Numbered from the stretch's first letter, positions 8,704 through 52,931 are shown. The stretch: DNA of 64,000 bases from Candidatus Omnitrophota bacterium (GCA_041649175.1 JBAZNR010000001.1:158934-222933), one strand, 5' to 3'. Notes: generated from the sequence alone by a model not told the origin. Made by a program: numbers and translations.

Positions 8704-8708
8704 ATATA

Positions 8709-13506: not shown

Positions 13507-13528
13507 AAAAAATCAAAAGCTTTCAGGG

Positions 13529-13819: not shown

Positions 13820-13853
13820 ACGCTTATCCTGTCAGATGTTCTTGAACAAGTTA

Positions 13854-15948: not shown

Positions 15949-15975
15949 TGGTTCAAATCAATATTTGGACGATGG

Positions 15976-19171: not shown

Positions 19172-19603
19172 ATGAATATTAAAAATATGGCCTCAACTCA
19201 GAATCTGCGATCGGCTTCTCTTTTTTTGGGAGCGCTCGTCATTATTTCCATCCATATTCATACTCTCATCAAGGAAACAACAAAAAACCAACAACTTCGC
19301 CAAAACGTTCCCGCTCAATTTCTGGGTTATAAATTCGCCGGGCTTGAAGAAACACTGCGCGATGTGCGCTATATTGGCTATTACAGCGATAAAAGCCTTG
19401 ATGACCGCGTTTTTGCCGCGCAATTTGCCCAGGCGCAGTACATCTTAACTCCGGCTATTTTGGATTTTAACAATACTGATCATGATTTCATCCTTTTTGA
19501 TTGTTCCACGGAAGATATTGCCATGAGAAAAATAAAACAGATCGGCGCTGTTCCTTTGAAGAAAAACCAATTCGGGATCATCTTAGCAAGAAAAATAAAA
19601 TGA
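19172..19603 (+). CDS. hypothetical small protein with N-terminal TM
   Basis: ORF track; its TGA stop overlaps the ATG of the next gene (ATGA at 19600-19603). Confidence 0.3.
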   Translation: MNIKNMASTQNLRSASLFLGALVIISIHIHTLIKETTKNQQLRQNVPAQFLGYKFAGLEETLRDVRYIGYYSDKSLDDRVFAAQFAQAQYILTPAILDFNNTDHDFILFDCSTEDIAMRKIKQIGAVPLKKNQFGIILARKIK

Positions 19604-20955
19604 CCGCCATTTTCCCTTATCTACTCTCAACAGCTTTAGGTTATTTGCTGATAAGGACTTTATTTAGAAATCAAACTCCGGTCAGCATTTATTTTTACTT
19701 CTTTGTTTCCATTGGCGCCGGTTTAGGCTTAAGCACTTACATAACTTTCTTTAGTTTTCTTTTATTTGATCAATTAAATCAATTTTTTGTTCTTGCGGCA
19801 CACGCAGTAATCCTATGCCTATTTATTTTGACCGGAAAATTTCTCCTAAAACTTTCCTGGAAAGATCTCTTTATCGTCAGGAAATTTTGCACTCGGGAGC
19901 TTTTATTGTTCCTGATCCTTATTTTTGCCTCTGTTCCCCTGCTTATCCACTGCCAATTTTATCCCAATGGCGGCTGGGATGCCTGGTCTTGTTGGAACTT
20001 AAAAGCCCGTTACCTTTTTCTCGGCGGCGAAGAGTGGCAAAATATGCTAAACCCAATTCTGTGGCGCTCCAGCCCTCACTATCCGCTTCTTTTACCTCTT
20101 ATTAATGTCTGGGGGTGGATGTTCTCTGACCAGACGCTACCGGCAACCCCGATGATCACCTCGGTCGTATTCACGTTCATCACATCCGGGCTTTTGCTCT
20201 TTAGCTTAAATGAAATAACATCCAAGATCGCGTCTGCTTTAGGTATGCTGCTTATAGCCGTGTTGCCGTTTTTTGTGACCATCGGAACAAGCCAGTACTG
20301 CGATATTGTTCTAGGTTATTTTCTTTTAGGGAGCTTTGTTTGCGCGATTCTTGGTATTCGGAAAAATTCTTTGCCTTTGATCGCTTTATCGGGATTGTTT
20401 CTTGGATTTTTGAGCTTCACAAAGCCGGAAGGAACGCTGGCTTCTTTACTGATCGTCTTTTTGTTTTGCGCGTATCTTGTTCTTCGGCAAACACAATTTA
20501 CCCCGAATTTCAGAAAAATTATTACGTATTTTCTAATAACATTTCTTTTTTCGGCCCTACCAACAATTCTTTTCCAGATCGTTTACTCTCCGGGAAATCA
20601 AACATTTATCAACGGGCTCTCTTCGTCATCTGATCCGTCTAATTTTTCCAGATTACAGCTCATCGGAAGTTTCTTTCTAGTGGAATTAGGAAGCCAAAAA
20701 TGGAACGGCCTTTGGATCTTTTTAGGAGTAGGAATTGTGCTTATGGGTAGGAAATGCTGGCAAGGAACAACGCTAATTTTGCCGCTATTTTTCTTAATTT
20801 ATCTTCTTACGATCTTCTTTTATTATTTTCTGAATACTTATTTTGCGGCCGCCTGGTGGCTATCCGTCACACTCAACAGAATTCTTCTAACACTGCTGCC
20901 TTCTGCTATTTTCTGGGTCTTTTCTTCTTTGGGCCGGCTCAGCCAAGAAAAATAA
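19600..20955 (+). CDS. polytopic membrane protein (about 12 TM), possibly a GT-C-type or polymerase-like enzyme. Start reassigned to 19600.
   Basis: MTAIFPYLLSTALGYLL…; Trp/aromatic-rich loops ('GGWDAWSCWNLKARY'); translationally coupled to 19172..19603. Confidence 0.4.
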   Translation: MTAIFPYLLSTALGYLLIRTLFRNQTPVSIYFYFFVSIGAGLGLSTYITFFSFLLFDQLNQFFVLAAHAVILCLFILTGKFLLKLSWKDLFIVRKFCTRELLLFLILIFASVPLLIHCQFYPNGGWDAWSCWNLKARYLFLGGEEWQNMLNPILWRSSPHYPLLLPLINVWGWMFSDQTLPATPMITSVVFTFITSGLLLFSLNEITSKIASALGMLLIAVLPFFVTIGTSQYCDIVLGYFLLGSFVCAILGIRKNSLPLIALSGLFLGFLSFTKPEGTLASLLIVFLFCAYLVLRQTQFTPNFRKIITYFLITFLFSALPTILFQIVYSPGNQTFINGLSSSSDPSNFSRLQLIGSFFLVELGSQKWNGLWIFLGVGIVLMGRKCWQGTTLILPLFFLIYLLTIFFYYFLNTYFAAAWWLSVTLNRILLTLLPSAIFWVFSSLGRLSQEK

Positions 20956-21506: not shown

Positions 21507-23531
21507 TTATTGACTATTATAATTCTGCAATCGTCTTTGAGCAGAGTCAAGCATCTTTTTGTTGTTTTGATTTTCATAAAGCTTGATGGCGGCCGCTAAA
21601 ACTTTTTGAGCTTCATTGATCTGACCTATTTTATTTAAGGTATTCGCGAGATTAAAATACGCATTGGCAAATTGCACGTCAACAGCAATGGCTTTTTCAT
21701 AACAATCAATCGCTTCATCGTAGCGGCCAAGCATATCCGCAATATTACCCATATTATTATGTGCGGACGCCATTTTATCATCCCGCTTTGCCGCAGACTT
21801 ATACGCGTCATAGGCCATCTCGTATTTTTCTTCCGACACATAAATGTCGCCTAGGCTATAAAACGCGAAAGCAAAATCAGGGTTGAAACGAATGGCTTCG
21901 TAAAAATAAAACTTCGCCTTAGATAGGTCATTTTTCTCCAGATGAACACGCCCCAAACCCGCGTAAGCCGGCGCAAAAGTAGGATTTATCTCCAGGGCCT
22001 TGCGGTAGCTTTCCTCGGCAGCTTTCGAATCCCCTTTTTGCCTATGAACATTACCTAGATTATAATGAGGGCCATCGTAATTGGGTTTGATCTCAATGGC
22101 TAGGTTTAGCTCTGCTATAGCGCGGTCGATATCCCCTTTTTCAAAATAGATATTACCCAGATTATTATGCGGATGCGCGTAATGGTTATCGAGCGCGATC
22201 GCCTTCTCATATTCTTGCTGCGCTTTTTCCAGAAAACCTTTTTCGTGATAGACGACCGCCAAGTTATTATGGACCCTGGCCTTGCCCGGTGATTTTCTAA
22301 CGATATCTTCCAGAAATCCCAATCGATCAGACCAAACAATATTCCTTTGATAACTTAACACGGAAAGAATGCTGATCAATATCAATGCCGCGGCAATTTG
22401 CCATCTTCTAAGAGAAATAAATCGGAACAATAAAACCGCGCAAACAATGATAGCGCCGATCATCGGCAGATAAAGGCGATGTTCAAAAATAACGTCGGCA
22501 ATAGGGAAAAAACTTGATTCTAAGCTTAACGTTAGAAAGAACCAAGAAATACCGAATGCGATCAATTTTTGCTTCTTATAGATTTGCATGGCAAGAATCA
22601 ATATTCCAAAGAGAATACAAAAAGAGAAAAAAGTAGGAAACGAAAAAAAGCTACGCGCGATCGGGTAATCGTAATCCAAGTTCTGATGGACAGGAAAAAC
22701 CAACAGGCGTAAATAGGTTACAAGGACATTGAACTGCGTTAATAAATAATCTCCCCTAGAAATACTGTTCGTTTCCCGCGTTACGTCCAAAAGCCTGGTC
22801 AAATCCCATGATTTGTACTTCCATAGCATTAAAAGAGAAGGGACAGCGACAATCATAAAGACAAATGGCAAAAAAGCTAAGATTATTTTTTTATCCCTCT
22901 TAAAAGAAAAATCCAGGAAAAATATTTCCAGCAGAATAATGGCAAAAGGCAAAGTAATAATAATGGGTTTTGTAAAAAGCCCCACAAAAGCAACGGCAAC
23001 CGAAAAAATATAGAAAATTAATTTCTTTTCTTGGCGAAATCGCACATATAAAAGCAGAGCGAGCAAATAGCACGCACCCGCCAAAAGCGTTGAGCGCTGC
23101 GAAACATATGTGACCGCTGATGTCTGCAGAGGATGAACAAGGAAAATAGCCGCCCCAAAGAAAGCCATGGCTTTCGCATCTTTTAAGGTCCGATTTTCTT
23201 TTAAACCTCTTTGAAATATTTCTTTCAGAAAAAGATAAACAAGGCCCGCTACCGCGAAATGAAGTAATAAATTAACCGCATGATAACCTTCCGGTTTTAA
23301 TCCGCCAAAAAAATAATTGACCGCAAAACTTAAGTGGGTCAAAAATCTCGACGGATCTGTCATCCAAATAACAAAAATACTGCGCAGATCCTTGATCGCC
23401 GAATCTTCAACGATAGTCATATAATCATCGAATTGAAAAGGCGCGCGCAAGGAAGGCCAATAAACACAAACCCCCAAAGCAAAAAGAATAAAAATGGAAA
23501 TGATCGGCGCGATCGCCTTATTTCTTTTCAT
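21507..23531 (-). CDS. TMTC/DUF1736-like GT-C membrane glycosyltransferase homolog plus TPR array (paralog D)
   Basis: 'FQFDDYMTIVEDS', 'HAVNLLLH', 'VHPLQTSAVTYVSQRST'; C-terminal TPRs. Confidence 0.6.
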   Translation of the reverse strand: MKRNKAIAPIISIFILFALGVCVYWPSLRAPFQFDDYMTIVEDSAIKDLRSIFVIWMTDPSRFLTHLSFAVNYFFGGLKPEGYHAVNLLLHFAVAGLVYLFLKEIFQRGLKENRTLKDAKAMAFFGAAIFLVHPLQTSAVTYVSQRSTLLAGACYLLALLLYVRFRQEKKLIFYIFSVAVAFVGLFTKPIIITLPFAIILLEIFFLDFSFKRDKKIILAFLPFVFMIVAVPSLLMLWKYKSWDLTRLLDVTRETNSISRGDYLLTQFNVLVTYLRLLVFPVHQNLDYDYPIARSFFSFPTFFSFCILFGILILAMQIYKKQKLIAFGISWFFLTLSLESSFFPIADVIFEHRLYLPMIGAIIVCAVLLFRFISLRRWQIAAALILISILSVLSYQRNIVWSDRLGFLEDIVRKSPGKARVHNNLAVVYHEKGFLEKAQQEYEKAIALDNHYAHPHNNLGNIYFEKGDIDRAIAELNLAIEIKPNYDGPHYNLGNVHRQKGDSKAAEESYRKALEINPTFAPAYAGLGRVHLEKNDLSKAKFYFYEAIRFNPDFAFAFYSLGDIYVSEEKYEMAYDAYKSAAKRDDKMASAHNNMGNIADMLGRYDEAIDCYEKAIAVDVQFANAYFNLANTLNKIGQINEAQKVLAAAIKLYENQNNKKMLDSAQRRLQNYNSQ

Positions 23532-25591
23532 TATTTTTTATTTTCGTTGAGTTTTTCTTCGATCGCTTCGGCTTTTTTTGTTTGCCCTTGGGCGCGATAC
23601 AATTTTACCGCTTGGCGGGCAGACTCTCTTGATTCTTCAAGGCGGCCGGATTCGTAGAGAGCATTGGCTAAATTAAAATACGCCTGAGCCAAGGAAGGAT
23701 CATGGCTAATGGCTTTTTCATAGTTCTCGATGGATTTTTGAAAATCACCAAAATAAAAAAAGACATTTCCTAAATTGTTAAGCGCATCGGCTAAATCAGG
23801 CTTTAATTGAATAGCCTGTTGATAACTCATCAATGCTTCATAAAAATTACTTTCCGTAAAATAAATATTCCCTAAATTATAATGCGCAAACGGATTTTGA
23901 GGATCAAGCCTTAGGGATTCTTGCAGGGCTGACTTTGCCTCCCCTGTACGTTTGGCGTCAGAATAAAGATTTCCTAATCCCGCATAGGCGGACGCGTTGA
24001 ACTTATCTAAGCTGATCGCCCGGTTAAAAGAATCCATGGCGGCATCAAAATCCCCCTTTTTCTGGGCGACAAGCCCTAAACCTAAGCACACCGAAGAATG
24101 ATCCGGATATTGTCCGGCGAGATTTAAAAGCAGTTTTTCCGCTTCCCGGATATTTCCTGTCTCGAGATAAACCATCGCAAGGTTATAGCGGGCCGTAAAA
24201 TAATCGGGGTCTAAGCTTAAAGCCTTAAGATATTCGGCCTGAGCTTCTTGAAATTTTCCTTTTGAGAAATAAAAATACCCTAAATTGTTATGCGGCCTGG
24301 ATTTTTGGGGTGATTTGGCAACAACGTCTTGCATAAATCTTAGGCCATTGCTCCAAAGATCATTTCTGACATAAGTCAGCACTGAAAATACAGCGACCAC
24401 GGCGACCATAACGCCAATGTATGCCTTTTTATCCTTAAAGAACTTATGAAGGATGGTACACAATAAAATTGCAAATCCAAAACATGATAAATAAACCCGA
24501 TGTTCGTTAATCACATCTGCCAGCGGAAAAATGCTTGAATCAGGTAAAAGGGCGATAAAAAATATGAAAATACCAAATGATACCAGGGGGCGTTTATTAA
24601 ATGATGTAGTCGCAATAAAAATGAGAAGGAAAATTCCCGCCAAAGATAGATACGTCGGAAATTCAAAAATGTTATGAACGATCCTAAAATCATAGTCTAG
24701 GTTCTGTCCGATGGGAACAAAAAGAAGCTGAAGATATTTCATCATGACATTGAACTGAGTGAACAAATAGCTGGGTTGCGGAATATTGAGATAACTTTGT
24801 GTTACAAGCGTTGTTAATTTCCCCATTCCAAAAAGAAAAAGAGGAATGGCCAGCATTGGAAGGACAAAACATAAAAACGTCACTCGCTCCCGCCATCCGG
24901 TATCTGGCTCATCATCTTTAAAGAAACACAACTGCACTAAGATCACGACTAAAGGCAGTGTTGCGATGATAGGTTTACTGAGCATCCCCAGAAAACAGAA
25001 GACGATCGCCCATAAATATAATTTAAAGTTCCGTTCAATTTTTCCTTTAAAAAAGAAATAGAGCGTTGCGACATAAAAGAAACCTGCCAGAACCGTTGAC
25101 CGCTGAACAATATAAGTAACCGCTTGTGTTTGGATGGGATGGAGCAGGAAGATGAGCGCGGTAAATAAAGAAATAAGGAAAGAACTGTCCTCATCCCAGG
25201 CGTTTTTTATCCGGGGCATCTGGAAGATCTGAAAACTAAAAAGAAAAACAAAAAAGCTCGTCATGATGTGGATCAGCAGGTTAACCAAATGCCATCCAAA
25301 AACATTGAGCTTGAATGCCAAGTAAGTTGCAAGAAAGGTAAGATTGGTGAGAAATCTGGAGCGGTCATATTCCCAAAGAGCGGGAAGGTCGAGATTTTTG
25401 ATGAGCGGATTATCCACGATCACCGCATGGTCATCAAACTGAAAATCACCCCAAAAGCTGCGGCTATAAGCGGCAAAAGCAGAAACAACGATGATCCAAA
25501 ATGCCGTCCGAAAACGCCGTGCTCCGGAGAAATATTCTAAAAAAGAAGAGCCGAATAGATCCGCGGCCGAAAAATAAGAAGTTTTGCTCAC
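23531..25591 (-). CDS. TMTC/DUF1736-like GT-C membrane glycosyltransferase homolog plus TPR array (paralog E)
   Basis: 'FQFDDHAVIVDNP', 'HLVNLLIH', 'LHPIQTQAVTYIVQRST'; its TAA stop shares one base with the ATG of paralog D (TAATG). Confidence 0.6.
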   Translation of the reverse strand: MSKTSYFSAADLFGSSFLEYFSGARRFRTAFWIIVVSAFAAYSRSFWGDFQFDDHAVIVDNPLIKNLDLPALWEYDRSRFLTNLTFLATYLAFKLNVFGWHLVNLLIHIMTSFFVFLFSFQIFQMPRIKNAWDEDSSFLISLFTALIFLLHPIQTQAVTYIVQRSTVLAGFFYVATLYFFFKGKIERNFKLYLWAIVFCFLGMLSKPIIATLPLVVILVQLCFFKDDEPDTGWRERVTFLCFVLPMLAIPLFLFGMGKLTTLVTQSYLNIPQPSYLFTQFNVMMKYLQLLFVPIGQNLDYDFRIVHNIFEFPTYLSLAGIFLLIFIATTSFNKRPLVSFGIFIFFIALLPDSSIFPLADVINEHRVYLSCFGFAILLCTILHKFFKDKKAYIGVMVAVVAVFSVLTYVRNDLWSNGLRFMQDVVAKSPQKSRPHNNLGYFYFSKGKFQEAQAEYLKALSLDPDYFTARYNLAMVYLETGNIREAEKLLLNLAGQYPDHSSVCLGLGLVAQKKGDFDAAMDSFNRAISLDKFNASAYAGLGNLYSDAKRTGEAKSALQESLRLDPQNPFAHYNLGNIYFTESNFYEALMSYQQAIQLKPDLADALNNLGNVFFYFGDFQKSIENYEKAISHDPSLAQAYFNLANALYESGRLEESRESARQAVKLYRAQGQTKKAEAIEEKLNENKK

Positions 25592-34123: not shown

Positions 34124-34639
34124 TCATTTTTCCGCAGGAAAAACGGTGATCTTGTCCCCGGTGATCTTCGCGTTTGGAACAATGATCCGCTTGCCATCCG
34201 ATGTCACAATGATCGTATTGAATATTTGGATCTCCTCAACAACTCCCAAAGCACCACCCGCTTCGACCGTACTGCCCACATGAAATGGCTGAAAAATGAT
34301 CAGCATAACTCCCGCAGCAAAGTTTGACAAAGAACCTTGCAAGGCCAAGCCAACCGCCAAGCCGGCGGCACCAAGAACCGCGATAAACGATGTTGTCTCA
34401 ACACCCAGTTTATTTAAGGCGGCAATAACGGCAAATGCCAGGATAATAAAGTACACCATGTCCTTAGCAAAGGTAACGAGTGTTCTATTGATCTTTGAGC
34501 GCGTCATGGATTTATCAACTATCTTAGATACGATCTGGGCCGCCCATTTTCCCAAAATGAAGATAACGACCGCCGCCAGCAAATTAATGCCATATTGAAT
34601 CAAATAACCGTAGATCTTATCCCAATTTTCTTGCATCAA
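34124..34639 (-). CDS. small MscS-family channel-like protein
   Basis: 'ALQGSLSNFAAGVMLIIFQPFHVGSTVE…GVVEEIQIFNTIIVTSDGKRIIVPN'. Confidence 0.55.
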   Translation of the reverse strand: MMQENWDKIYGYLIQYGINLLAAVVIFILGKWAAQIVSKIVDKSMTRSKINRTLVTFAKDMVYFIILAFAVIAALNKLGVETTSFIAVLGAAGLAVGLALQGSLSNFAAGVMLIIFQPFHVGSTVEAGGALGVVEEIQIFNTIIVTSDGKRIIVPNAKITGDKITVFPAEK

Positions 34640-36963
34640 TTCTCCTCCTCATTATTTTTATCAATAAAAAACCGATTATACGCTTGCAAACCCAAGTAAT
34701 ATTCGCACACAGGTTTCAAATCCCGATTAATAGGATAACTTTTAAGCAATAGCTCTACTCGGGCATGTTTATAATCTATCGGCTTCATATACTTCGTATT
34801 AACAACACTTTGAATGTCCTCCCGATATTCCAAAGGAAAAGCAGAAAGAATTTGTTGGTATCTTCTTTCATTTTTATTGAACGGCGCATTAGACGCTAAG
34901 CAAAAAGATCCATAGATCTTAATGTGATCAAAGACAGAGAATAAAGTTCCCAAGACCACGCGATATTCATTCATCCACAGCAAAAGAACACCGCCCGGCG
35001 CAAGGCGGTCTTTGATCAACTGCAAAAATTCCTGCGAATAAACATTATTGCTGTACGCAGTCGTTGTCCGGATAAGATTAATGAGAATAAGGTCATATTT
35101 TTCATCTGTCCTTAACAAAAATCTTCTTCCGTCATCAATGACCAGATGAATGCGCGGATCAGACAGCATCCTATCGAAGAAAGGTATTTTTATCAAATTC
35201 CGGATAAGCGCGCGATGGATCTCAACGACCGTGATCTTTTTGGCCTCAATACTTTTTCTAATTGCTTCGGTAATAGACCCCGTTCCATAACCAATGACGA
35301 GGATATTATCCATACGGGGCGCGAAACTAGCCGCTTCCATAGCTTCATAAAAAAACATATGGCTCGGATATCCTCCCTCGGAAGAACCATTGATATAATT
35401 TGCAATATATTTCCCCTGCTGCGCGGTCACCACCACCGCTCCCACATCTTCTTCGATCAAGACAGCCGAGGTGTTCGCGGACAAAGGATGCATTAATTCA
35501 TAAAGCTGAGTTTTCTTAGGAAAGAAGATGAAAAGAATGGTCAGAAGGATCAGCAGGCCTGATTTTTGTGCAAGGCGCATTTGCCAATTTGCGGAAGTTT
35601 TTATCCAAAATCCTAAAAGAATGCCGATACAGCAAAAGATGATCAAAGTTTGTTCCGTGCCCAAATACGCTAAAAGCAAAAACCCCGTAACAAGCCCGCC
35701 TAAAAGATTGCCGATCGTGTTAAAGAAATAGATGGTCCCGATCGTCTTGCCTTCTTTATTTTTCTCCGATAAACCCAAAAGAGAGATAAGAGGAAAGCTT
35801 GCCCCCATCAAAATCGTTGGAACTAGCACAAAAACGATCGGCCATAAGAAAACATCAATGAGAGAATACAAAAACCAAAAAAATGTTACCGGCCTAAGAA
35901 GGCTTTCCTGAAATGCCGCGATGGTCGGTAAAAAAGGATGCAGGTCATGCGCGAATGAGATCGTCGTCGCCCAGCGAAAATGGGTATTTTTTGTCAGATA
36001 AAAATACCCGATAAAAACGACCATAACAAATAAAGCGATAAAAAACTGCAGAAGAAAAAAAAGGCTGCGCTTGTCCGCACTTTTATGTTTATTTAAATGC
36101 CGGTTCATCCATAAACTTCCCAAAGCAATACCTAAAAGATAAACAGCCAGTACCGTTGAGAATGTATACGCAGACGCCTTAAGCGGGATCTTGATGACGC
36201 GAAACCAAATGATCTCATATCCGATCGCCAGAAATCCCGTAATAAATACCAATAAATACGCCATTTTTCCGAATAGAAAATCACTGCCTTGATCATCATG
36301 AGCTTGAGGCAGCTCTGCCGCGCGAACAGGCATAGACCTGGCAAGAAAGATCAACAAGGCCAAAATGCCGTTGATCGTAACGGCAACATAGATAGCGGTA
36401 TCCAAGCCAAAGAAAGAAATGATCACATAGCTCGCGCATAAAGCTCCAAAAGCCGCTCCGATCGTATTGATAAAATACAAGTGGCTGACCGTCTTAAAGA
36501 AATCCCGGACAAAGCTATTGAATATTTTTGTTAAAAGCGGAAGCGTCATTCCCATCAAAAACGTCGGGAGCGACAAAAACAAGAACATGTACGCAAACGA
36601 AAGCCAGTAATCGCTTCCGGCCGTGTGGCGGCCGAGAAAATCTAGGAAAGGAATGCTTAAAACCCCAAAACAGCCGATCAGTATCTCGATGATAAAATAA
36701 AAAGTGATCTTGTCTTTGATGCGCTCAGCGAGCACTCCGCCTAAAAGCGCTCCGCATCCTAATCCAAACATATAAACACTCACGATCAAAGCGGAAGAGA
36801 TCTCTCCAACCCCATAATAAAGCGTTAAAAGTCTTTGCCAAACCACCTGATAGATCAGTCCGGCAAATCCGGAGAAGAAAAAGACAAAAGAGAGCAATGA
36901 GCTGATATGGCGAGAATTCTGAAGCGAACTTGAAAGCGGATTTTTCTTAAAGAAGAAATTCAT
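34636..36963 (-). CDS. fusion of MFS-like polytopic membrane domain and C-terminal spermidine/spermine synthase-like domain
   Basis: About 500 aa with 12 or more TM, then 'ILVIGYGTGSITEAIRKS…VVEIHRAL…' resembling the aminopropyltransferase Rossmann fold. Confidence 0.55.
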   Translation of the reverse strand: MNFFFKKNPLSSSLQNSRHISSLLSFVFFFSGFAGLIYQVVWQRLLTLYYGVGEISSALIVSVYMFGLGCGALLGGVLAERIKDKITFYFIIEILIGCFGVLSIPFLDFLGRHTAGSDYWLSFAYMFLFLSLPTFLMGMTLPLLTKIFNSFVRDFFKTVSHLYFINTIGAAFGALCASYVIISFFGLDTAIYVAVTINGILALLIFLARSMPVRAAELPQAHDDQGSDFLFGKMAYLLVFITGFLAIGYEIIWFRVIKIPLKASAYTFSTVLAVYLLGIALGSLWMNRHLNKHKSADKRSLFFLLQFFIALFVMVVFIGYFYLTKNTHFRWATTISFAHDLHPFLPTIAAFQESLLRPVTFFWFLYSLIDVFLWPIVFVLVPTILMGASFPLISLLGLSEKNKEGKTIGTIYFFNTIGNLLGGLVTGFLLLAYLGTEQTLIIFCCIGILLGFWIKTSANWQMRLAQKSGLLILLTILFIFFPKKTQLYELMHPLSANTSAVLIEEDVGAVVVTAQQGKYIANYINGSSEGGYPSHMFFYEAMEAASFAPRMDNILVIGYGTGSITEAIRKSIEAKKITVVEIHRALIRNLIKIPFFDRMLSDPRIHLVIDDGRRFLLRTDEKYDLILINLIRTTTAYSNNVYSQEFLQLIKDRLAPGGVLLLWMNEYRVVLGTLFSVFDHIKIYGSFCLASNAPFNKNERRYQQILSAFPLEYREDIQSVVNTKYMKPIDYKHARVELLLKSYPINRDLKPVCEYYLGLQAYNRFFIDKNNEEEN

Positions 36964-44128: not shown

Positions 44129-45115
44129 TTAATTCTGTATCAACTCAATAAGCTTAGGATAAACCACTGTAGTTTTTTGGTAAGGTTGTTCCGGGTCAAT
44201 GAGGTCATGCAAAATACCTAAATTCTTATCAAACTGAAAGTGTGTTATTTTAACGCTGCTGTGTCGACGCCATTCTTTAATAACTCCATCGATCGTCTTC
44301 TCATTGACCGCACCATCCAAAGCGCTTGTAACAACTACAATGGCCCGAGTCTTTGGCGCCACGCTCCTGGCTTTTTTCATAACTGCCCAGCCAAGACACA
44401 TGATCTGAGCAACCCCTCTGGTCGAAAATCCGAAATAAGAGGACGTCGGCCCCGTGAGCGCTGTCTTTCCTTTCTTGTCCCACCACTCGAACTTATTGGG
44501 CCAAATGTATAAGAGGTTGATGGTCGGTTTAAACAAACCTGTCGGCAACCCCTTCCACCCCCAGAAAGGCGCGATGATAACAGCCTTATCAACATCGCTT
44601 CTATTTTGCGCGACCCAACCGGCCATGTTCGCGCCCATGGAAAAACCAACGATCGTGACATGTTTGCCCAGCCCTTGGGCAATATCCACGGATTCATCAC
44701 ATAATATGGCCAATTCCAACGCAGTCAGCTGGGCGAGGTCATTGGTCATCCGGTCCTTAAGGCCATGGTGCGGGACCCGGGGGATCAGAACATTATATCC
44801 CTTTTCATAAAAGATCTTTCCCAGCGCTTCAAATTGCCGGGGGCTATTGGTGTTCCCGTGAAAGAATACGATTGTCTCACGCGTTTCTTCCCCATGTGCC
44901 AGAAAAATAAGGCGCCCATCCGGGGAAACATCTTCCCCATCAAGAGCGCGTAAATGATCAATGCGCCTAACGCTTTCCTGATAGCTGAGAGATGGATTAG
45001 CTTTTGAAACGAGATGGCGCGTACGGACAGGTTTTAAAAAAAGAAAGCAAGCGCAGAGCAAGATTGCCAATAAAACAGTTCCCAGAAACTTAATGAAGAA
45101 AAGCTGTAACATCAA
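44129..45115 (-). CDS. alpha/beta-hydrolase (esterase/lipase-like) with N-terminal TM
   Basis: 'GFSMGANMAGW' GxSxG nucleophile elbow. Confidence 0.65.
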   Translation of the reverse strand: MMLQLFFIKFLGTVLLAILLCACFLFLKPVRTRHLVSKANPSLSYQESVRRIDHLRALDGEDVSPDGRLIFLAHGEETRETIVFFHGNTNSPRQFEALGKIFYEKGYNVLIPRVPHHGLKDRMTNDLAQLTALELAILCDESVDIAQGLGKHVTIVGFSMGANMAGWVAQNRSDVDKAVIIAPFWGWKGLPTGLFKPTINLLYIWPNKFEWWDKKGKTALTGPTSSYFGFSTRGVAQIMCLGWAVMKKARSVAPKTRAIVVVTSALDGAVNEKTIDGVIKEWRRHSSVKITHFQFDKNLGILHDLIDPEQPYQKTTVVYPKLIELIQN

Positions 45116-45550: not shown

Positions 45551-47719
45551 CTAACTCAAAGTTTCCTTAAATCTATCCAAACATATTTTCATAAATTGAT
45601 CCGGAAAAGCGTCAAACATCCTTTCCGCATGGCCGCCATCTTCCATGATGGTCAAAAGCTTAGGCTCCTTTGCCTTTGCAAATAAAAGCTGACTATGACT
45701 CAGCTTGACGAGCCAGTCTTTCTCACCATGAAGGAAGAGAACCGGTGTCGGTGATATCTTATCAACAACGTCGCGAGGCCGGATCTTTTGTAAAGCCAGG
45801 CTGCCTGACCTGACACCCTTCCCTTTCCCTTTGATCCCAAAATTAAGCATGAGATCTCTCCACATATCTTTTTCCCAAAAATGAAAATCGATCTTTCCTA
45901 AATCTGACGGGGAACTGACAGCGATCACACTATCAATGTTCTGATGGAAACTTGCCTCAACCAATGCGATCGCAGCACCCAGTGAAAACCCGATCACGCC
46001 GATTTTTTCATACTTGTTTTCTTTCGCATAAGCCGTGATCGCCCGAAGATCTTTTTGTTCAAGCGCTGTCCACGTAAACACATCGCTGCTCTTGCCATGC
46101 CCGCGAAAATCGAACACGATCACATCGTATTCTTTGCTAAATGCGTCAGCCATCCCTTTAAATAAAACCGTATCCTTATTGTTGTAAAATCCGGGCGCGA
46201 TAATAATAACTTTGAAAAACCCTCCTTTAATATGAAGAAAGGAGATGCGTTTCCCATCCTCTGTCATCACGTAACGATCAGGCTCGCTCTCCTGCGCAGG
46301 AGAAGGCGTCAGTTCAGCAGTTTTCGCCGTTCCATTAAGCGGAGTTGCGACTAAGTCGCCGGCCGCGCTCTTAGAAGAAAGGTCGTCGCTCTTTACCGTC
46401 GTATCATTAATTTTCTTGGGTTCCGTTTTCTTAAAATTTCCTTCAAAGATCGACATGATTATGGATTGAACATAATTTTTGTAAATATCCAACTCTGCTC
46501 TCATGCGCCAAAAGAAAAGATACTGCGAACTATTTCTCTTGCCCACGGAAATTGTTTTTCTTGATCTCGCATCTTCATAAATGGCTAACATGCGTTTGGC
46601 GGAGGCACTGATCGTGTATTTTTCTGCCGTCGTTCTTGCGGCCTGCTTTATGGTTTGTGTTTCTTCGGGAGAACGATTTAAAACCCACAGCAGTGCCTCA
46701 GAAAAGCTGGGTTGATCCATCTCCATAAGCAATCGTCCGTTACTGCCGTCTTTGACCATGTCCCGCGCTCCGGGCGCATCCAGCGCTACCACCGGAGCAC
46801 CTGATGCCATGGCTTCAATCAAGACGATCCCTTGAGTTTCGCTTAATGAGGCAAAGGCAAAAACATCCATAGCAAAATAAGCATCAACCAAATTCTGATA
46901 CTGCAAAACCCCGACCAAATGCACTCTTTCTTGAAGACCGGCTTTTTGAAAGGTGCCTTTGATCATTTTCTCTGATGAGCCTTTGCCAACGATCAGGGCA
47001 TGGACTCTTGTATCTTTCTTTAACGCTTCAACCATGCACTGGATCAGAAAGTCCAAATTTTTTTCCGACGCCAGACGCCCCGCATGTCCGATCACTAAGG
47101 CATCAAGAGGGATGTGGTTCTGCTCGCGAAACCCTTTTCTATCGCCTTTTGAGAAACGCTTCAAATCAACCCCGGTCGGAACGATCTCCATGGGTGTTTT
47201 AACACCTCTTTTAAGCAAGATTTCCTGCACGCTTTCGCAGGGCACGATCAGCCGGTCCACAAAATTGGCATATCCGGCAGACAGCTTGACCATAAATCGC
47301 TTGACTCCCTCGTTCTGAACCGGCAAATCCTGTGTGTACTCCTCAAACATCGTATGATACGTAAAGACCAGCGGTATAGCGTGCTGCCGGCTGAGGCGTA
47401 GAGCAAAATCTCCCATAAAAAACGGGCAATGGCTGTGGACAATATCCGGTGAAAATTCTTTCATAAGCCGCGTTAAGAGCATGGAAAACGGAAAATTAAC
47501 AGAGAAAATCGTCCGGTTGAATTTTTGGAAAGCGGGAAGCCGGATAACACCCGGCTCCTCTACGGGAGCCCCGTTAAAGGTTGGAGTCACGATCAAAACC
47601 TCATGCCCCAAAGTTTTAAATTCTTCGCTAAAAGAATAAACCGATTGCTCTAATCCTCCGACGATCGGGAAATAGGTATTTGTCATCATGAGAATTCTCA
47701 TTTTTTCTCCTTCGCACAA
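45551..47719 (-). CDS. fusion of N-terminal GT4 glycosyltransferase and C-terminal alpha/beta-hydrolase
   Basis: 'MRILMMTNTYFPIVGGLEQSV…' GT-B/GT4 and EX7E-like region; C-terminal 'GVIGFSLGAAIAL' nucleophile elbow. Confidence 0.6.
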   Translation of the reverse strand: MCEGEKMRILMMTNTYFPIVGGLEQSVYSFSEEFKTLGHEVLIVTPTFNGAPVEEPGVIRLPAFQKFNRTIFSVNFPFSMLLTRLMKEFSPDIVHSHCPFFMGDFALRLSRQHAIPLVFTYHTMFEEYTQDLPVQNEGVKRFMVKLSAGYANFVDRLIVPCESVQEILLKRGVKTPMEIVPTGVDLKRFSKGDRKGFREQNHIPLDALVIGHAGRLASEKNLDFLIQCMVEALKKDTRVHALIVGKGSSEKMIKGTFQKAGLQERVHLVGVLQYQNLVDAYFAMDVFAFASLSETQGIVLIEAMASGAPVVALDAPGARDMVKDGSNGRLLMEMDQPSFSEALLWVLNRSPEETQTIKQAARTTAEKYTISASAKRMLAIYEDARSRKTISVGKRNSSQYLFFWRMRAELDIYKNYVQSIIMSIFEGNFKKTEPKKINDTTVKSDDLSSKSAAGDLVATPLNGTAKTAELTPSPAQESEPDRYVMTEDGKRISFLHIKGGFFKVIIIAPGFYNNKDTVLFKGMADAFSKEYDVIVFDFRGHGKSSDVFTWTALEQKDLRAITAYAKENKYEKIGVIGFSLGAAIALVEASFHQNIDSVIAVSSPSDLGKIDFHFWEKDMWRDLMLNFGIKGKGKGVRSGSLALQKIRPRDVVDKISPTPVLFLHGEKDWLVKLSHSQLLFAKAKEPKLLTIMEDGGHAERMFDAFPDQFMKICLDRFKETLS

Positions 47720-49197
47720 GCGCAGACCAATCCATCCATTGAGGATTGGGTCTTTAATTCTATAAGCGCTTTTCTAGCCGCTATACATATCGCGTCGTAA
47801 GAGTTTTTCGCCCCCATGGCTAAGCCTTCTTTTTCCAGGTCTTTAGGCAGAAGCGGCTTACCAAACCTCACCCTGATCGGATGGCGCTTAGGATACGTTG
47901 CCGTACTAGACCAAGCCTCATGAGCTCCTTCGATCGCCACAGGCACAAGCTTTGCCCCTGTCTCCTTGGCCAAGACGCCGAATCCTTTTTTAAATTTCCC
48001 GATTTTGCCAGTAGCGCTGCGCAACCCTTCAGGAAAGAAACACAAGCCCTTTCCATGTTCTAACACAAGAAAACAACTACGTAGCGCTTCTAAGAAATGC
48101 GTTGAGAAATCAAAAGGAATAAATCTTCCCATCTTGACGAGATTCCATAAAATACTAGACTTTTCAAACGGCCTAAAAAAATACGGCCCAAAAACAAAAT
48201 AAAAAAGCTGAAACACTGGTCGACGCGGCAAACAAGCGGCAATGGCTGGCCCATCAAGAAAACTCGTATGGTTGCCATACAGAATATAAGCTCCTTCTTC
48301 AGGTACGTTCTTTGCGCCTTCTTCTTTAATACTGAAAAACAACTTAAAAATCAAACAATCGATAGCTGTCAAAACAAATCGAAACAACCAGGCAAAGTAA
48401 CCTGTGCTCAATTCGATCATTTCCAAATTTTCTTTTTTCGGCGGTACGCGTAAATTTTCTTTCCAATAGTCTGGCCCTAAAGGTATCTTTTGATTCTTCG
48501 AGGAAATGCCTTTGGCTTCCTTCAGCGCCTCCGCTATCCCTAAAATAAGATCCTTGACGCTAAAGGCTCTCGAGATCGCCTCTTCATTTATATCAGTTCC
48601 AAGAGCTGCCTCAAGGCACGAAGCAAGCTCTAGCCTGCCTAATGAATCTATGCCAATGTCCAGCTCTAATGAATTCTCAAGGATTATTGATCCGGTGATA
48701 CCGCTTTGTTCCTTCAAACATTTTAAAACTTTTATGCCGATCTCAGACTCTATCAAAAGAAGATCTTCTGGTAAAAGTTCTTTTGATACCGGAAGAGAGC
48801 CTTCTATGCCCTTAATCACCCTGGATTCATATATCTTCTTGACTGCGCTTCTTTCTAACTTACCGAAAAGCGTATGGGGTAAATCCTCAAGCGTAATCGT
48901 AAAACCTTTAAGCCTTTTATGCAAAGGGAGTGATTGCGAGGCATTGTCAAATCTCTCCTTAATGACAGAGCGTAGATTCACTTCACCAAATTCCCTAAAA
49001 TCATCAAGATCTGGCTGAATAATAGCCCAAAGAACTTTCGTCTTCCCTGCGCCTTCCATTCCAGAGACTGTAAAAACGCACATCTCTTTGACCGGAGCAA
49101 CTTTTGTATAAGCTTGCTCAATCTCTTCCGGATAAATTTTTTCCCCCGATTTCAATATGATAAAATTTTTAATTCTGGATGTCAGAGATGTGGTCAT
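47698..49197 (-). CDS. three-part protein: AMP-binding C-terminal subdomain, ACP (PP-binding) domain, PlsC-type lysophospholipid acyltransferase
   Basis: 'KSGEKIYPEEIEQAYTKVAPVKEMCVFTV' (AMP-binding_C-like); 'LDIGIDSLGRLEL' phosphopantetheine Ser motif; 'GNHTSFLDGP' HX4D acyltransferase motif. Confidence 0.5.
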   Translation of the reverse strand: MTTSLTSRIKNFIILKSGEKIYPEEIEQAYTKVAPVKEMCVFTVSGMEGAGKTKVLWAIIQPDLDDFREFGEVNLRSVIKERFDNASQSLPLHKRLKGFTITLEDLPHTLFGKLERSAVKKIYESRVIKGIEGSLPVSKELLPEDLLLIESEIGIKVLKCLKEQSGITGSIILENSLELDIGIDSLGRLELASCLEAALGTDINEEAISRAFSVKDLILGIAEALKEAKGISSKNQKIPLGPDYWKENLRVPPKKENLEMIELSTGYFAWLFRFVLTAIDCLIFKLFFSIKEEGAKNVPEEGAYILYGNHTSFLDGPAIAACLPRRPVFQLFYFVFGPYFFRPFEKSSILWNLVKMGRFIPFDFSTHFLEALRSCFLVLEHGKGLCFFPEGLRSATGKIGKFKKGFGVLAKETGAKLVPVAIEGAHEAWSSTATYPKRHPIRVRFGKPLLPKDLEKEGLAMGAKNSYDAICIAARKALIELKTQSSMDGLVCACAKEKK

Positions 49198-49201
49198 TTA
49201 T

Positions 49202-51934
49202 CTACCTCGCTCCTGTCGGCAAGCAGGATTTCAATTCAAAAGAATTCGTTCCTGGTGTAATTCTAACGTCATTAAAACCTTGCAATTGAATATCTATGGG
49301 TGGCTCGCTCTCAAACCACTGTCCTTGCCATTCGACAAGGATATTTTGCCCTTGAGGTTTTATGGAAATTTGAATATTTCCAAAACTTGTTGGCGCGGGA
49401 CCAAAAGAGATCGTTTGTTTTTTTTCTAACCAGATACACGGGATCCCGGAACATAAGATCAATCGCTCACCTTCTTCGCGCACAAAACAATTTCTGATCA
49501 TCAAAACCCATTCCGCCGCGGCCCACACATGCTGTCCGTCCCCCATACATCCGCCACCGGTACGCGGATGGACCGACTCAGGCCATTGCCCCGTTGGTGA
49601 AGCCAGCTTGGCCACCGCAGTCATCAAATCAAAATACCTTGGATCTCCCGCACGCAAAAGCACTTGAGCTAAATGCAGCGTAAGGTACGGATTGATCCCA
49701 GAATGAGTCATATCATGAAAGAATCCGCCATGAACTAAACAATTTTTCATTAAGAAATCAGCTGTGTCTAAGATCTTTGGGTCATTGGGTTCAAAAACAC
49801 GAAGCGGATAACTCGCCACCAAAGAGCCGATAGCCCCTGTATCCAAGCGCCGATAGGGAGAAGCTGGTATGGTAGGCTTTTTAAAACGCTCTTCCACTTT
49901 TTTTAAACTTTGTTCAATGCTGGCAAGTAATGCCTGCGATTCCTTTTCAAAATAAACAGCCTTCTCCTGATCTTTATAAGCCGCGCATAAAAAGGCTGAC
50001 GCTTTTAATCCTGCAACAGCCCAAAAGTCATCCCAATAATAAAAATCATTTGGCCCCAAATGCTCGGCGCTAAATCCCGATGGCAGTAAGCCCGCATGAG
50101 GGGATTGCAAGTTACTCGGCAAACGCTTTTTGCAGATCCACTGGCTCGCTTTATGGATGGATTCTTTCCATTCGTTAGGAGGGACATTTCCTGTCATCTC
50201 GCAATACTGACGCATGATCCACAAGGCCTCTCCATTAGAATCCCATTCCCCTTCTTGGGAAAGAAAATAACCTTGTTTTGTCTGGCGGGAACGAAAACAA
50301 TCTAGAGCCCTGCGGACACGCTCATTTAGCCCAACACATAACAAGGCATGCAATATGAACGCAGCATCACGAAACCAAAACCGTCGATAAATATAAGGAC
50401 CCGGATAAACTTCCCTGGGGGAATGCAGGACCATCGCATGAATCGCAGCTTCATAAAGAAATTGAAAATGCTCATCAGGAATTTTTAATGAACACACGCC
50501 TTGAAGGCTTTTTGCCCACTGTGCTTTAGCAATGTCTTGATAGTCTCCATAAGATTTTTCTTCATTTTTATTTTTCGTTAAAGGTACTGAAATAGTAATT
50601 TCTTCTTTTTGTCCGGATTCTAATATGAAAATAGCAGCAGAGCTAGCCATGCCGACTTTGCATGCCACTTCTTTTTCATTTTCTTCCGACGAAAACAACG
50701 GATCTTCCTGTTTTTTCTTCGTCGGTGGTATAGGAAAGGTCAAGCGGCTATATACATCGCCGCGATGATAATCAGAAAACATATACTGATCGGCGGGCTT
50801 ATCAAAATAGACGGAATGTTCGCGGTTAACTTGCCAGCCTAACGAGCCTTCCAGAAGAACAATACTATGTATAAAACTCACGCCTTCCGGGTTATACGGC
50901 CGCAAGGAGACAATTAATCGCGCATTGATAAAAACCTTTGCTGTGACTTTGATCTGGCAAAGAGGCGCTTGAGCTGATCCAATAACTTGCGTTCTTAATT
51001 GAAGGCTTAATTGATCTGAACTTGATGCTGTCGTCACATAAAAATCGTTATCTAGGCCCATCTTTTGCGATACGCTGTCACATTGCGACGGGATCAATGG
51101 ATCCCCTTTTTGGGGGATTATCCAGACATCAAGTGACCATCCATCATAATAGGGAGTCACAAGGCCGCGCGGATCCACCAAAGGGAAATCGATGCTATCG
51201 GGAACACCTAAGGCGGTCCAATTTCGGTGGGTAAGATTAATTTGGGTTAGCGAAAAAGATCTTGGAATGAACGCCACGTTGTGAGGATCATACTGGCATC
51301 GTACCCAATAGGGCCAGATCCAATCAAGATTATGCTGGATCGCTAAACTATTAAGTAAACCACGCGCGTGCAAAACAACGCCTGAGCGTAACAACTCCGT
51401 GGGAGCTGCTACCTCGGAAGGCTGCGAAAAGTTTTGCAATTGGGAAAGAACTTTGATGGGATCTAAAAACCCTTGCTTGCGCGCGGCATCAGTGACTAGA
51501 AATCTCCACGGAACCCATTTCCACCACACAAAATAAGCCCCCTTTTTTAAAAGAGACCTGAAAACCCACCACTTAAAGCAAATGAAAGTAAGCAATCCTG
51601 TAAACACCGCAGCGATAACCAAAGCCAAGAAAACAGAACTTGGCCACACGCTTAGAACATATCGGTTTATTAAAACATTAATTTCTAAGGCTAGGAAATT
51701 AATCAATATATACCGACGAATTTCAACATATGACGGCTGGTTACACTGAAATATCCAATATTTATTAAGCAAATACGCGGCAATACCCGCACACGTAAAA
51801 GAAACTGCTTTGGACAGACTGAAAGATAGAAAATGAATTAAGAAATAGTAAATACCAAAATCTACCGCCCCAACAAAAACCCCTGCGATAAGAAACCGGA
51901 CAATTTCTTTCTTAACATTCAGATTAGTTTTCAA
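49202..51934 (-). CDS. GtrA-like N-terminal membrane domain fused to a large (about 780 aa) six-hairpin glycosidase-like domain (GH15/GH63/GDE_C-like)
   Basis: N-terminal 4-TM 'RFLIAGVFVGAVDFGIYYFL…KYWIFQ' GtrA pattern; C-terminal alpha/alpha-toroid-like repeats. Hydrolase family not resolved. Confidence 0.45.
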   Translation of the reverse strand: MKTNLNVKKEIVRFLIAGVFVGAVDFGIYYFLIHFLSFSLSKAVSFTCAGIAAYLLNKYWIFQCNQPSYVEIRRYILINFLALEINVLINRYVLSVWPSSVFLALVIAAVFTGLLTFICFKWWVFRSLLKKGAYFVWWKWVPWRFLVTDAARKQGFLDPIKVLSQLQNFSQPSEVAAPTELLRSGVVLHARGLLNSLAIQHNLDWIWPYWVRCQYDPHNVAFIPRSFSLTQINLTHRNWTALGVPDSIDFPLVDPRGLVTPYYDGWSLDVWIIPQKGDPLIPSQCDSVSQKMGLDNDFYVTTASSSDQLSLQLRTQVIGSAQAPLCQIKVTAKVFINARLIVSLRPYNPEGVSFIHSIVLLEGSLGWQVNREHSVYFDKPADQYMFSDYHRGDVYSRLTFPIPPTKKKQEDPLFSSEENEKEVACKVGMASSAAIFILESGQKEEITISVPLTKNKNEEKSYGDYQDIAKAQWAKSLQGVCSLKIPDEHFQFLYEAAIHAMVLHSPREVYPGPYIYRRFWFRDAAFILHALLCVGLNERVRRALDCFRSRQTKQGYFLSQEGEWDSNGEALWIMRQYCEMTGNVPPNEWKESIHKASQWICKKRLPSNLQSPHAGLLPSGFSAEHLGPNDFYYWDDFWAVAGLKASAFLCAAYKDQEKAVYFEKESQALLASIEQSLKKVEERFKKPTIPASPYRRLDTGAIGSLVASYPLRVFEPNDPKILDTADFLMKNCLVHGGFFHDMTHSGINPYLTLHLAQVLLRAGDPRYFDLMTAVAKLASPTGQWPESVHPRTGGGCMGDGQHVWAAAEWVLMIRNCFVREEGERLILCSGIPCIWLEKKQTISFGPAPTSFGNIQISIKPQGQNILVEWQGQWFESEPPIDIQLQGFNDVRITPGTNSFELKSCLPTGAR

Positions 51935-52103
51935 TAAAATTTTCCTTCTGGATGGTCTATCTCTTCGTGATTTCCTGCGCTGTTAAAAACGAGGGACCCC
52001 TCTAAAAAATTGATCCTTAAAACAATAAGAATAGCTTTCTTGCTCAGAACTTACCATCCTCCGCCCCCTCCATCTTCAAGCAGAGGATGGTTTATCTTAA
52101 GTT

Positions 52104-52223
52104 CTATGTGGACATGATCTTCCGGCCGGCTTTACGATTCTTTACTTTTCCGCGTCCGCCGGGCCTCTTAGAAGCCCGCTTTTTTGCTGCCGTCATTCTT
52201 CCCCCTCGACTTTTCTTCGCCAT
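52104..52223 (-). CDS. candidate 39-aa highly basic protein (MAKKSRGGRMTAAKKRASKRPGGRGKVKNRKAGRKIMST). Not in the ORF track.
   Basis: Strong SD 'AAGGAGGT' 9 nt upstream of ATG (rc of 52224-52245); K/R content about 40%. Confidence 0.3.
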   Translation of the reverse strand: MAKKSRGGRMTAAKKRASKRPGGRGKVKNRKAGRKIMST

Positions 52224-52271
52224 TTCTTACAAACCTCCTTTTATGTTTTACAACTTGGTTGCCGTTTTTAA

Positions 52272-52931
52272 TTATTGTGTCGTAGTAGTGGTGGTCGTTG
52301 TGGTGGTTGTCGTGACAGTCGGTGAATACAGCGTAATATAACGCGCCAGCTGTTTCCCATCTTTTGCCACATATTCAACTTTAACAACATCGCCGGGCTT
52401 GATCATTAATTCCACGGGTTGTTTACTTGGACTGCGCATCACAATGATAGTCTTGGGGTCAAAAACAAAATAAGAGATCCTGCTTTTTTCTTCTTGGCCG
52501 ATCCTTACTCTTTCTTCCACCTCAAGCGTTCCAGCCGTAACATCAATAGCCTTTAACTCACCAAAGGCTTGCTGATACTCGGATGCCGGCAAAGGATTGA
52601 CAATGACTTTCTGTATAACTTTATCCTCTTGTCCGTCCGCCACATCAATAGTGACATATTGACCTGCCCGTAAGTCACCGACGTTGAGAAACTTTACATC
52701 CGCAGAATCAGTAACTCGCGTTTCATTTTGAGTAATTCTATACGCGATCGTTTTAGTGCCCTGGGGTGTCTCTCGATTAATTTCTAATTTACCTTGTTGA
52801 ATATCTACCCATCCGATTTCTCCTGATACCTGATGCACACCCACAGCCTCTTCAGCGCGCACAGATATGCCGCTGAATAATGCAACGGCCGCAATAACAC
52901 TAAATACTTTCAGATAATTTATATTCATCAA
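52272..52931 (-). CDS. secreted protein with C-terminal poly-Thr (T12) tail
   Basis: Signal peptide 'VIAAVALFSGISVRA'; C-terminus TVTTTTTTTTTTTTQ encoded by mixed ACN codons. Confidence 0.5.
   Translation of the reverse strand: MMNINYLKVFSVIAAVALFSGISVRAEEAVGVHQVSGEIGWVDIQQGKLEINRETPQGTKTIAYRITQNETRVTDSADVKFLNVGDLRAGQYVTIDVADGQEDKVIQKVIVNPLPASEYQQAFGELKAIDVTAGTLEVEERVRIGQEEKSRISYFVFDPKTIIVMRSPSKQPVELMIKPGDVVKVEYVAKDGKQLARYITLYSPTVTTTTTTTTTTTTQ

Follow-up and report, generated by a model that had tools for sequence, protein, structure and literature searches.

An ANL lid without its adenylation core, fused to a carrier domain and a PlsC-type acyltransferase, in Candidatus Omnitrophota

Introduction

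The enzyme Aas of Escherichia coli couples the activation of fatty acids on acyl carrier protein (ACP) with the PlsC-type re-acylation of lysolipids at the membrane; its transferase spans residues 1-203, its synthase residues 204-719, and the carrier it uses is free cellular ACP (PMC11416262). In capreomycin biosynthesis, the carrier module CmnI has no adenylation (A) domain and is loaded in trans by CmnA-A1, for whose binding an N-terminal extension of the CmnI carrier is needed (PMC12400406). Here we analyse a gene with the working name T, located at 47698..49197 on the minus strand of a 64-kb window (the whole stretch of DNA analysed, 64,000 nucleotides from Candidatus Omnitrophota bacterium, JBAZNR010000001.1:158934-222933). 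It encodes a protein of 499 aa (NCBI MFA5059194.1) that reads as the C-terminal lid of an ANL adenylating enzyme, followed by an ACP domain and a PlsC acyltransferase domain, with the adenylation core missing.

Of the characterized systems, E. coli Aas with LplT comes closest to T; the pair serves in lysophospholipid repair, Aas being a 2-acyl-GPE acyltransferase/acyl-ACP synthetase to which LplT brings the lysophospholipid acceptor. Compared with Aas, the acyltransferase domain of T matches the Aas models, while T has a fused ACP, the reverse domain order and no synthetase core. That the order in Aas is reversed had been stated in the original prediction, which was made from the sequence alone, and agrees both with the published domain limits (PMC11416262) and with the NCBIfam model PRK08043 (Aas), on which residues 282-427 of T align to positions 8-142 of 719 (score 51 bits, cut-off 886). 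Only this transferase part of T matches, so that the combination of transferase and acyl-ACP synthetase in one protein, by which Aas is defined, is absent. T is best regarded as a core-less variant, which probably works like the second half of Aas. The pair CmnI/CmnA-A1, in turn, is an experimental precedent for the trans-loading that we propose for T below. However, the CmnI extension is a disordered tail of ~20 residues whereas the lid of T is folded, and CmnI serves amino-acid chemistry with a condensation domain downstream, whereas T would serve lipid acyl transfer.

Glycolipid pathways of the PimA/PatA type have in common with T that a GT4 glycosyltransferase and an acyltransferase of the LPLAT (lysophospholipid acyltransferase) family are encoded side by side. 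PatA takes acyl-CoA as donor and is not known to carry an ACP or a lid. It is found among the fold matches of the catalytic domain of T (5f2z, E 7e-4), while PlsC and glycerol-3-phosphate acyltransferase match better.

Homologous across all of T, at 35-54% identity, are tri-domain AMP-binding-ACP-PlsC proteins, which occur in Omnitrophota, Nitrospirota, Planctomycetota and others and are annotated as 'AMP-binding protein' or 'long-chain acyl-CoA synthetase'. They share with T the order of lid, ACP, hydrophobic helix and PlsC as well as the ACP and PlsC motifs. In contrast to them, T lacks a core of ~430 aa and its A8 and A10 motifs are relaxed. Neither this family nor a protein made of an orphan lid, ACP and PlsC was found described in the literature searched, the coverage of which was incomplete.

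Domain Architecture of T

The open reading frame (ORF) of T is closed on its 5' side by an in-frame TAA that abuts the ATG, and 4 nt separate its start from the TAG of the upstream gene, the position of this stop codon confirming the distance given earlier. The lid covers residues 1-126 (48820..49197, minus strand, as for all parts of T) and is supported by paralogue alignment, fold matches and the ratio of nonsynonymous to synonymous substitutions (dN/dS). The N-terminus lies ~7 residues ahead of the A8 hinge, with A8 represented by S7-R8...G18 and A10 by P107-H-T109-L-F-G112-K113. In Pfam scans, AMP-binding_C_3 matched residues 12-126 (E 0.0056) and AMP-binding_C residues 25-113 (E 0.013), both under the gathering score (17.5 and 16.8 bits). 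Since these matches were sub-threshold, the lid call rested on full-length paralogues and on the fold.

First, the NCBIfam comparison aligned residues 4-126 of T to the last ~100 residues of many acyl-CoA ligases, the best of them being a FadD7-family model (positions 399-504 of 505, E 7e-6). Second, another Omnitrophota contig holds a full-length paralogue of 910 aa (L001:13928-16660) with AMP-binding, AMP-binding_C, PP-binding and Acyltransferase domains. By BLASTP, residues 5-482 of T are colinear with its residues 438-907 at 40% identity (E 9e-101), and the alignment opens at the A8 hinge (LTSRIKNFIILKSGEKIYPEEIE in T, ITGRIKEMIVLSSGKKIFPEEIE in the paralogue) and spans the G-K of A10. The lids of full-length paralogues do reach the Pfam threshold (PF23562/PF13193). 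Third, the AlphaFold model of T (pLDDT 82.7, pTM 0.79) fits didomains of an A domain and a peptidyl carrier protein (CAR, McyG, EntF, EntE-EntB) over 200-250 columns. Over 100-125 columns, at 2.6-4.5 A, it also fits many ANL enzymes in their C-terminal subdomain. A profile of the truncated clade alone (A2) gave a weak lid match among PDB sequences (9bhy, residues 479-571 of 574, E 0.0016). The strong ANL matches of a profile from a mixed alignment (A1) were set aside, because the weighting had pulled N-domain columns into that profile. Judged by alignment and model, residues 1-126 are an ANL C-terminal lid. Profile, alignment and structure comparisons hence uphold the proposal that the first ~130 residues resemble such a lid.

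The ACP domain occupies residues 151-225 (48523..48747) and is recognized by Pfam and by ACP matches in the PDB. PP-binding (PF00550) matches residues 157-217 (E 2.5e-5, 24.9 bits against a cut-off of 20.8), while the A2 profile reaches ACP structures at values down to E 9e-6. The phosphopantetheine serine S185 is encoded at nt 48643-48645 within LELDIGIDSLGRLEL, in the motif G-I-D-S185-L-G-R. With the PP-binding match and the D-S-L attachment serine, T has the features of the ACP family, the modification itself being predicted. A linker follows (residues 226-285, 48343..48522), the sequence of which contains a long hydrophobic helix at ~262-290, modelled as helix 267-288. By its likeness to the N-terminal helices of Thermotoga maritima PlsC, this helix in front of the acyltransferase core is probably membrane-associating.

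The PlsC/LPLAT domain (residues 286-440, 47878..48342) was identified by Pfam, profile and fold. Acyltransferase (PF01553) matches residues 290-422 with E 1.2e-14 and 54.6 bits (cut-off 23), and the best fold match is T. maritima PlsC (5kym; E 5e-12 by profile, 1.9e-9 by fold). The H-x4-D dyad is present as H310-TSFL-D315, the F-P-E-G-x-R block as F388-PEGLR393 and the P-x-x-I-x-G block as P419...G424, with no variation at these residues across the T clade.

What a complete ANL enzyme possesses in addition, the large N-terminal AMP-binding domain with motifs A1-A7, was absent from the T polypeptide by Pfam. When the N-domain of the paralogue was searched against the 64-kb window by tblastn, nothing better than E 1.7 was found, and Pfam scans of the 25 window ORFs of at least 300 aa gave no AMP-binding match. 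Consequently, the proposed reading of lid, ACP and PlsC with no core nearby stands by Pfam, BLASTP and tblastn. T measures 485-499 aa in all 120 orthologues and starts at the hinge, so it does not combine three modules in one chain of ~900 aa as the tri-domain proteins do.

Distribution and Phylogenetic Origin

Could the missing core be an artifact? The original prediction had allowed for a frameshift or an assembly error, and the unusual architecture might raise such a suspicion, as might damage in related genes (described below). However, the 120 best homologues, all from Candidatus Omnitrophota metagenome-assembled genomes (MAGs), are 70-87% identical, 480-500 aa long and all open with M-T-E-x-L-T-x-R; the window copy has 14 extra residues at its C-terminus compared with these orthologues. 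The exact protein is present in NCBI (on a contig of 1,225,647 bp), JGI and ENA. For a wider view, one genome per GTDB species was scanned and combined with earlier look-ups, which resulted in 45 loci, each with a truncated copy of at least 67% identity. The synteny was the same in 40/40 loci from independent MAGs, and dN/dS over the whole gene is 0.16. The shared start, the synteny and the three repositories refute a frameshift or assembly error, and the notion that T is an artifact of this kind or a decaying pseudogene has practically no probability left.

Two observations concern the records themselves. In isolate PPR_0475 the T gene is found on three separate contigs (L017, L019, L029) at 72-79% identity to the query, which points to paralogy or, more likely, to a bin that mixes several strains. 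Furthermore, the records L015, L021, L023, L027, L034, L038, L040, L051 and L053 carry T or sister genes at identities typical of Omnitrophota, yet are titled 'uncultured Planctomycetales/Planctomycetia'; these titles are probably coarse or wrong labels.

Among 1.84 billion cluster representatives searched with HMMER, the truncated form was confined to one cluster at 50% identity plus fragments. Nearly all other relatives (at most 44% identity; 390 at E <1e-30) are ~870-940 aa long and align from about residue 430, which speaks for the lid assignment as well. In a neighbor-joining tree, calculated from the shared region of a sequence subset with 30 bootstraps, the truncated clade was monophyletic in 30/30 replicates and sister to 13 full-length Omnitrophota genes (44-54% identity) in 27/30. 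In these 13 sister genes the N-domain is contiguous upstream of the shared region. Judged from these sequence relationships, T is a truncated offshoot nested among the tri-domain proteins. Since its clade is monophyletic and sister to full-length Omnitrophota genes, one deletion of the ~430-aa core at the hinge is the likely and simplest history.

Taken as a whole, T represents a real and conserved domain loss of single origin. Its parts are ordinary; unusual is what was kept.

Conservation of Lid, Carrier, and Acyltransferase

To compare the three domains, alignment columns of 117 truncated and 98 full-length proteins were considered, with positions conserved in at least 95% of the full-length proteins regarded as family-invariant. 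In T, the ACP retained 3/3 of such positions, including S185 (100% in truncated and full-length proteins), and the PlsC domain 10/10 (H310, D315, FPEG, G405, P419, G424 and others). The catalytic residues of ACP and PlsC are intact. The lid, in contrast, retained 3/9 (P23, E27, R116). Its six relaxed positions are G7, R8, L15, G18, T109 and K113, where the family residue is kept in 1, 55, 79, 81, 45 and 80% of the clade, respectively. Five of them (G7, R8, G18, T109, K113) are the A8 and A10 residues, which are 96-100% conserved in full-length relatives. These five (G-R...G of A8, T...K of A10) line the active site of ANL enzymes in one or the other lid conformation. R8, G18, T109 and K113 occur together in 20/117 T proteins versus 13/13 proteins of the sister group. 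The window copy is among the 20, with S7 in place of G.

Nevertheless, the lid is under purifying selection and not decaying. Its dN/dS is ~0.20, while the linker stands at 0.31, the ACP at 0.14 and PlsC at 0.10, all rough values obtained by the Nei-Gojobori method from 40 pairs with dS near 1. Mean conservation is 0.80 for the lid versus 0.82 for the ACP, and the identity of T to its sister group is 0.51 and 0.50. To the wider family, the T lid is 0.365 identical versus 0.444 for the sister lid, a greater drift than in ACP or PlsC. Since the A8/A10 residues are relaxed while the sister group keeps them, we take the lid of the clade as probably non-catalytic; most likely, it is a retained scaffold or docking element and not one half of a split adenylating enzyme.

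Such a naturally split enzyme, in which the lid of T would remain catalytic and join non-covalently with a stand-alone core encoded elsewhere to load T's own ACP, has some points in its favor: the truncation lies exactly at the hinge and leaves the lid complete, the lid is under purifying selection, and the window copy has R8, G18, T109 and K113, the last of which occurs in 80% of the clade. However, residues that never change where a lid is catalytic (G7, R8, G18, T109 and K113) do so in the T clade, the overall divergence of which is only 13-30%, and at least one of the four key residues is missing in 83% of its members. Moreover, 42/45 loci have no N-domain within 10 kb of T, while the remaining three hold a complete full-length paralogue. 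The search for stand-alone cores, which was queried with the paralogue N-domain, returned mostly partial proteins from contig ends, and its sole stand-alone candidate, P0273 (462 aa), turned out to be a full-length gene (L008:2887-5610) broken by one in-frame stop. This stop falls on the conserved tyrosine of the lid (EVELQ*VKSP), by which the gene is called as a 462-aa AMP-binding protein and a 420-aa ACP-PlsC protein; this may reflect a sequencing error, a gene that has only lately become a pseudogene, or a split of recent date. A split enzyme is consequently very unlikely.

The same search also brought up P0307, in which a hydrolase is joined to part of an N-domain and nothing follows; it was rejected as well. 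Shorter representatives (P0145, P0167, P0205 and P0225; ~490-520 aa) were dismissed as independent truncations: their start is the Met of the conserved 'VMxGYY' motif within the N-domain, and they seem to be gene calls on fragments. A 472-aa protein at L009:3487-4905 and L010:1193-2611 combines an alpha/beta-hydrolase with only the first ~215 AMP-binding residues and is followed by an unrelated gene. Because it was found in an NCBI MAG and, independently, in a Logan run, this fusion is real sequence, and it looks like a remnant.

The reverse view would be that not only the lid but also the ACP is a structural leftover, and that PlsC uses soluble acyl-ACP or acyl-CoA in the canonical way. The public annotation of MFA5059194.1, merely 1-acyl-sn-glycerol-3-phosphate acyltransferase, fits to this view, and so does the finding that the catalytic domain is structurally most like a stand-alone PlsC. 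Yet the whole DSLGR motif of the T ACP, with its serine, is 97-100% conserved and the dN/dS of the domain is 0.14, which is hard to explain for an idle carrier. The conservation of the ACP thus disfavors an unused carrier, and we consider such leftovers decidedly improbable.

Gene Neighborhood

T is part of an operon on the minus strand. Directly upstream, at 49202..51934 and adjoining the start of T after the 4-nt gap, lies a gene for a 910-aa protein, in which a GtrA-type four-helix membrane domain (aa 13-125) is fused to a ~780-aa domain like the (alpha/alpha)6 domains of GH15, GH65 and GH94. The glycosidase-like assignment is based on a weak sequence match to TIGR01577 (GH15-type) and on Foldseek matches of this fold class at a TM-score of ~0.3; as the AlphaFold model of the fusion protein is poor (pLDDT 53.6), only the fold class of these matches was used. 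A profile of the fusion protein gave no match against PDB sequences. In 40/40 loci with sufficient flanking sequence, this gene immediately precedes T. Downstream, at 45551..47719 and overlapping the 3' end of T by 22 nt, a 722-aa fusion of GT4 and alpha/beta-hydrolase is encoded. The best NCBIfam match of its GT4 part is alpha-monoglucosyldiacylglycerol synthase (145 bits against a cut-off of 400). GT4 is directly downstream of T in 39/40 loci, and an alpha/beta-hydrolase, fused or separate, comes next in 19/32.

Two more genes continue the series on the same strand: one for a small membrane protein (PF04120; 45122..45526), which starts 24 nt after the GT4 gene and is found at the same place in the closest relatives, and one for a second alpha/beta-hydrolase of 328 aa with a hydrophobic N-terminus (44129..45115), which is found downstream in L011, L013, L020 and L024 as well. 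A scan of the operon for promoters and terminators gave counts near those of shuffled sequence.

Full-length relatives have other neighbors. While T sits with the GtrA fusion and GT4, they are accompanied by MFS (major facilitator superfamily) transporter and hydrolase genes or by hydrolase and PlsC-GH1 genes. Upstream of the sister genes, and overlapping them, lies an MFS transporter gene (L050:7494-12219; also L048, L051 and L053), and downstream of them an alpha/beta-hydrolase gene. This arrangement recalls lplT-aas, but here the ACP is fused and the domains come in reverse order, and the transporter is not identified as LplT by NCBIfam; T itself, in contrast to lplT-aas, has no such transporter as a neighbor. 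Hydrolases stand directly upstream of full-length relatives in L008, L066 and L044, are fused in L009/L010, and stand directly downstream of the sister gene in L050.

A full-length paralogue, 38-39% identical to T, was found within 10 kb downstream of T in 3/22 loci with long flanks (L001, L062, L044). In L044 it belongs to the operon itself, as the last of four genes (7341-10004, 10001-11458, 11455-13482 and 13482-16202) with overlapping start and stop codons. At L001:2953-16660, two-component-system genes lie between operon and paralogue, and a gene for a PlsC-GH1 fusion (640 aa) comes after.

These neighbors open one route by which T could be loaded independently of ATP: an alpha/beta-hydrolase would take an acyl group off a lipid, or off the ACP of the paralogue, and hand it on via an acyl-serine to the ACP thiol of T. 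No adenylating enzyme would be needed, and the operon would remodel acyl chains of glycolipids. Enzymes of the alpha/beta-hydrolase fold that shuttle acyl groups between carrier proteins, such as SyrC and CmaE, are known. The hydrolase fused to or following GT4 in 19/32 T loci, the second hydrolase gene recurring downstream and the hydrolases flanking both kinds of full-length relatives fit to this idea. However, in 13/32 T loci no hydrolase stands beside GT4, the hydrolases could just as well act as editing thioesterases or, as lipases, provide free fatty acid, and among the sequence features examined none separates a transacylase from a hydrolase. We thus regard ATP-independent loading as unlikely.

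Proposed Mechanism

The account to which we incline, if only by a little, is that T descends from an Aas-like enzyme, that its core was lost, that its ACP is loaded in trans by a full-length paralogue, and that the lid persists as a scaffold or docking piece. The ancestor would have been a tri-domain enzyme with adenylating core and lid, fused ACP and PlsC-type acyltransferase, from which one Omnitrophota lineage deleted the ~430-residue core exactly at the hinge. The remnant would be a membrane-associated module of carrier and acyltransferase, whose ACP, once phosphopantetheinylated, would presumably receive a fatty acyl group from another enzyme. Loading in trans is suggested because T keeps carrier and transferase without the core that activates fatty acids. 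The likeliest loader would be the adenylation domain of a complete paralogue, working with its own lid. T, its sister group and the nearby full-length paralogue hardly differ in the recognition core of the ACP, LELDLGIDSLGR(I/V)EL, and for this reason a cognate A domain could plausibly recognize the ACP of T. PlsC would then pass the acyl group from the ACP to a lipid acceptor. From the gene neighborhood, a conserved operon with GtrA-glycosidase-like and GT4 partners, we guess that this acceptor is not simply lysophosphatidic acid but a glycolipid or its lyso form. The orphan lid, out of adenylation chemistry, would remain as a folded element that serves the ACP or a partner protein as scaffold or docking piece. 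What we infer in this account is thus that loading occurs in trans, which enzyme does it, which lipid accepts the acyl group and what the lid does at present.

Several observations weigh against it. Neither a full-length paralogue nor any other ANL gene was found in the 64-kb window, and 19/22 loci with long flanks have no full-length paralogue nearby. K113 is still 80% conserved in the clade, and the T copy of the window keeps R8, G18, T109 and K113, so that by its sequence the lid of this particular copy may conceivably still be catalytic.

The original prediction offered two explanations for the orphan lid: its co-option for docking of the carrier protein, or an adenylation core encoded in trans. 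Co-option fits better, by the relaxed A8/A10 residues together with purifying selection, the docking role itself being one that we infer. As to a core in trans, a separate core that joins with this lid fits less well, while a complete paralogue that loads in trans with its own lid survives. A more specific version, which we put forward tentatively and hold to be doubtful, is that the lid acts as a docking handle by which the paralogue's core or the co-encoded alpha/beta-hydrolase charges the core-less carrier-acyltransferase. If so, one activating enzyme would feed two acyltransferases with different lipid acceptors. Such a system would be the lipid-metabolic counterpart of trans-loaded modules of nonribosomal peptide synthetases (NRPS), with a former catalytic subdomain now serving as a protein-protein interface.

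Significance

An ANL lid is normally deemed meaningless without its core, since its role is to swing over the active site. Here, a whole clade keeps the lid under purifying selection after loss of the core, while its catalytic residues have drifted; this would be a clean natural example of how a catalytic subdomain takes on another role. T also draws attention to an unstudied family of Aas-like tri-domain enzymes and to a strictly conserved three-gene lipid/glycolipid operon in Omnitrophota, a phylum in which, to our knowledge, no model organism is in culture and lipid biochemistry is almost lacking. If loading by the paralogue in trans holds true, it would provide a simple system for carrier recognition by adenylation domains outside NRPS and polyketide synthases. 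The practical consequence today is modest: the annotation '1-acyl-sn-glycerol-3-phosphate acyltransferase' is incomplete, and 'long-chain acyl-CoA synthetase' is wrong for the T clade.

Other Features of the Window

Coding in the window is almost entirely on the minus strand. One of only three plus-strand ORFs of at least 150 aa, at 19501-20955 (484 aa), belongs to no Pfam family at E <=1e-5. Five minus-strand paralogues of ~610-690 aa (2220-4298, 5143-6972, 8709-10766, 21507-23531 and 23531-25591) have C-terminal arrays of tetratricopeptide repeats and N-terminal halves without a Pfam match, and a 775-aa fusion of an MFS transporter-like and a spermine/spermidine synthase domain is encoded at 34636-36963 on the minus strand. 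Upstream of the operon, the minus-strand ORF at 52272-52931 ends in 12 threonines (TVTTTTTTTTTTTTQ), encoded by a simple repeat of ACC type, and opposite to this repeat a poly-valine ORF is read on the plus strand (52087-52341).

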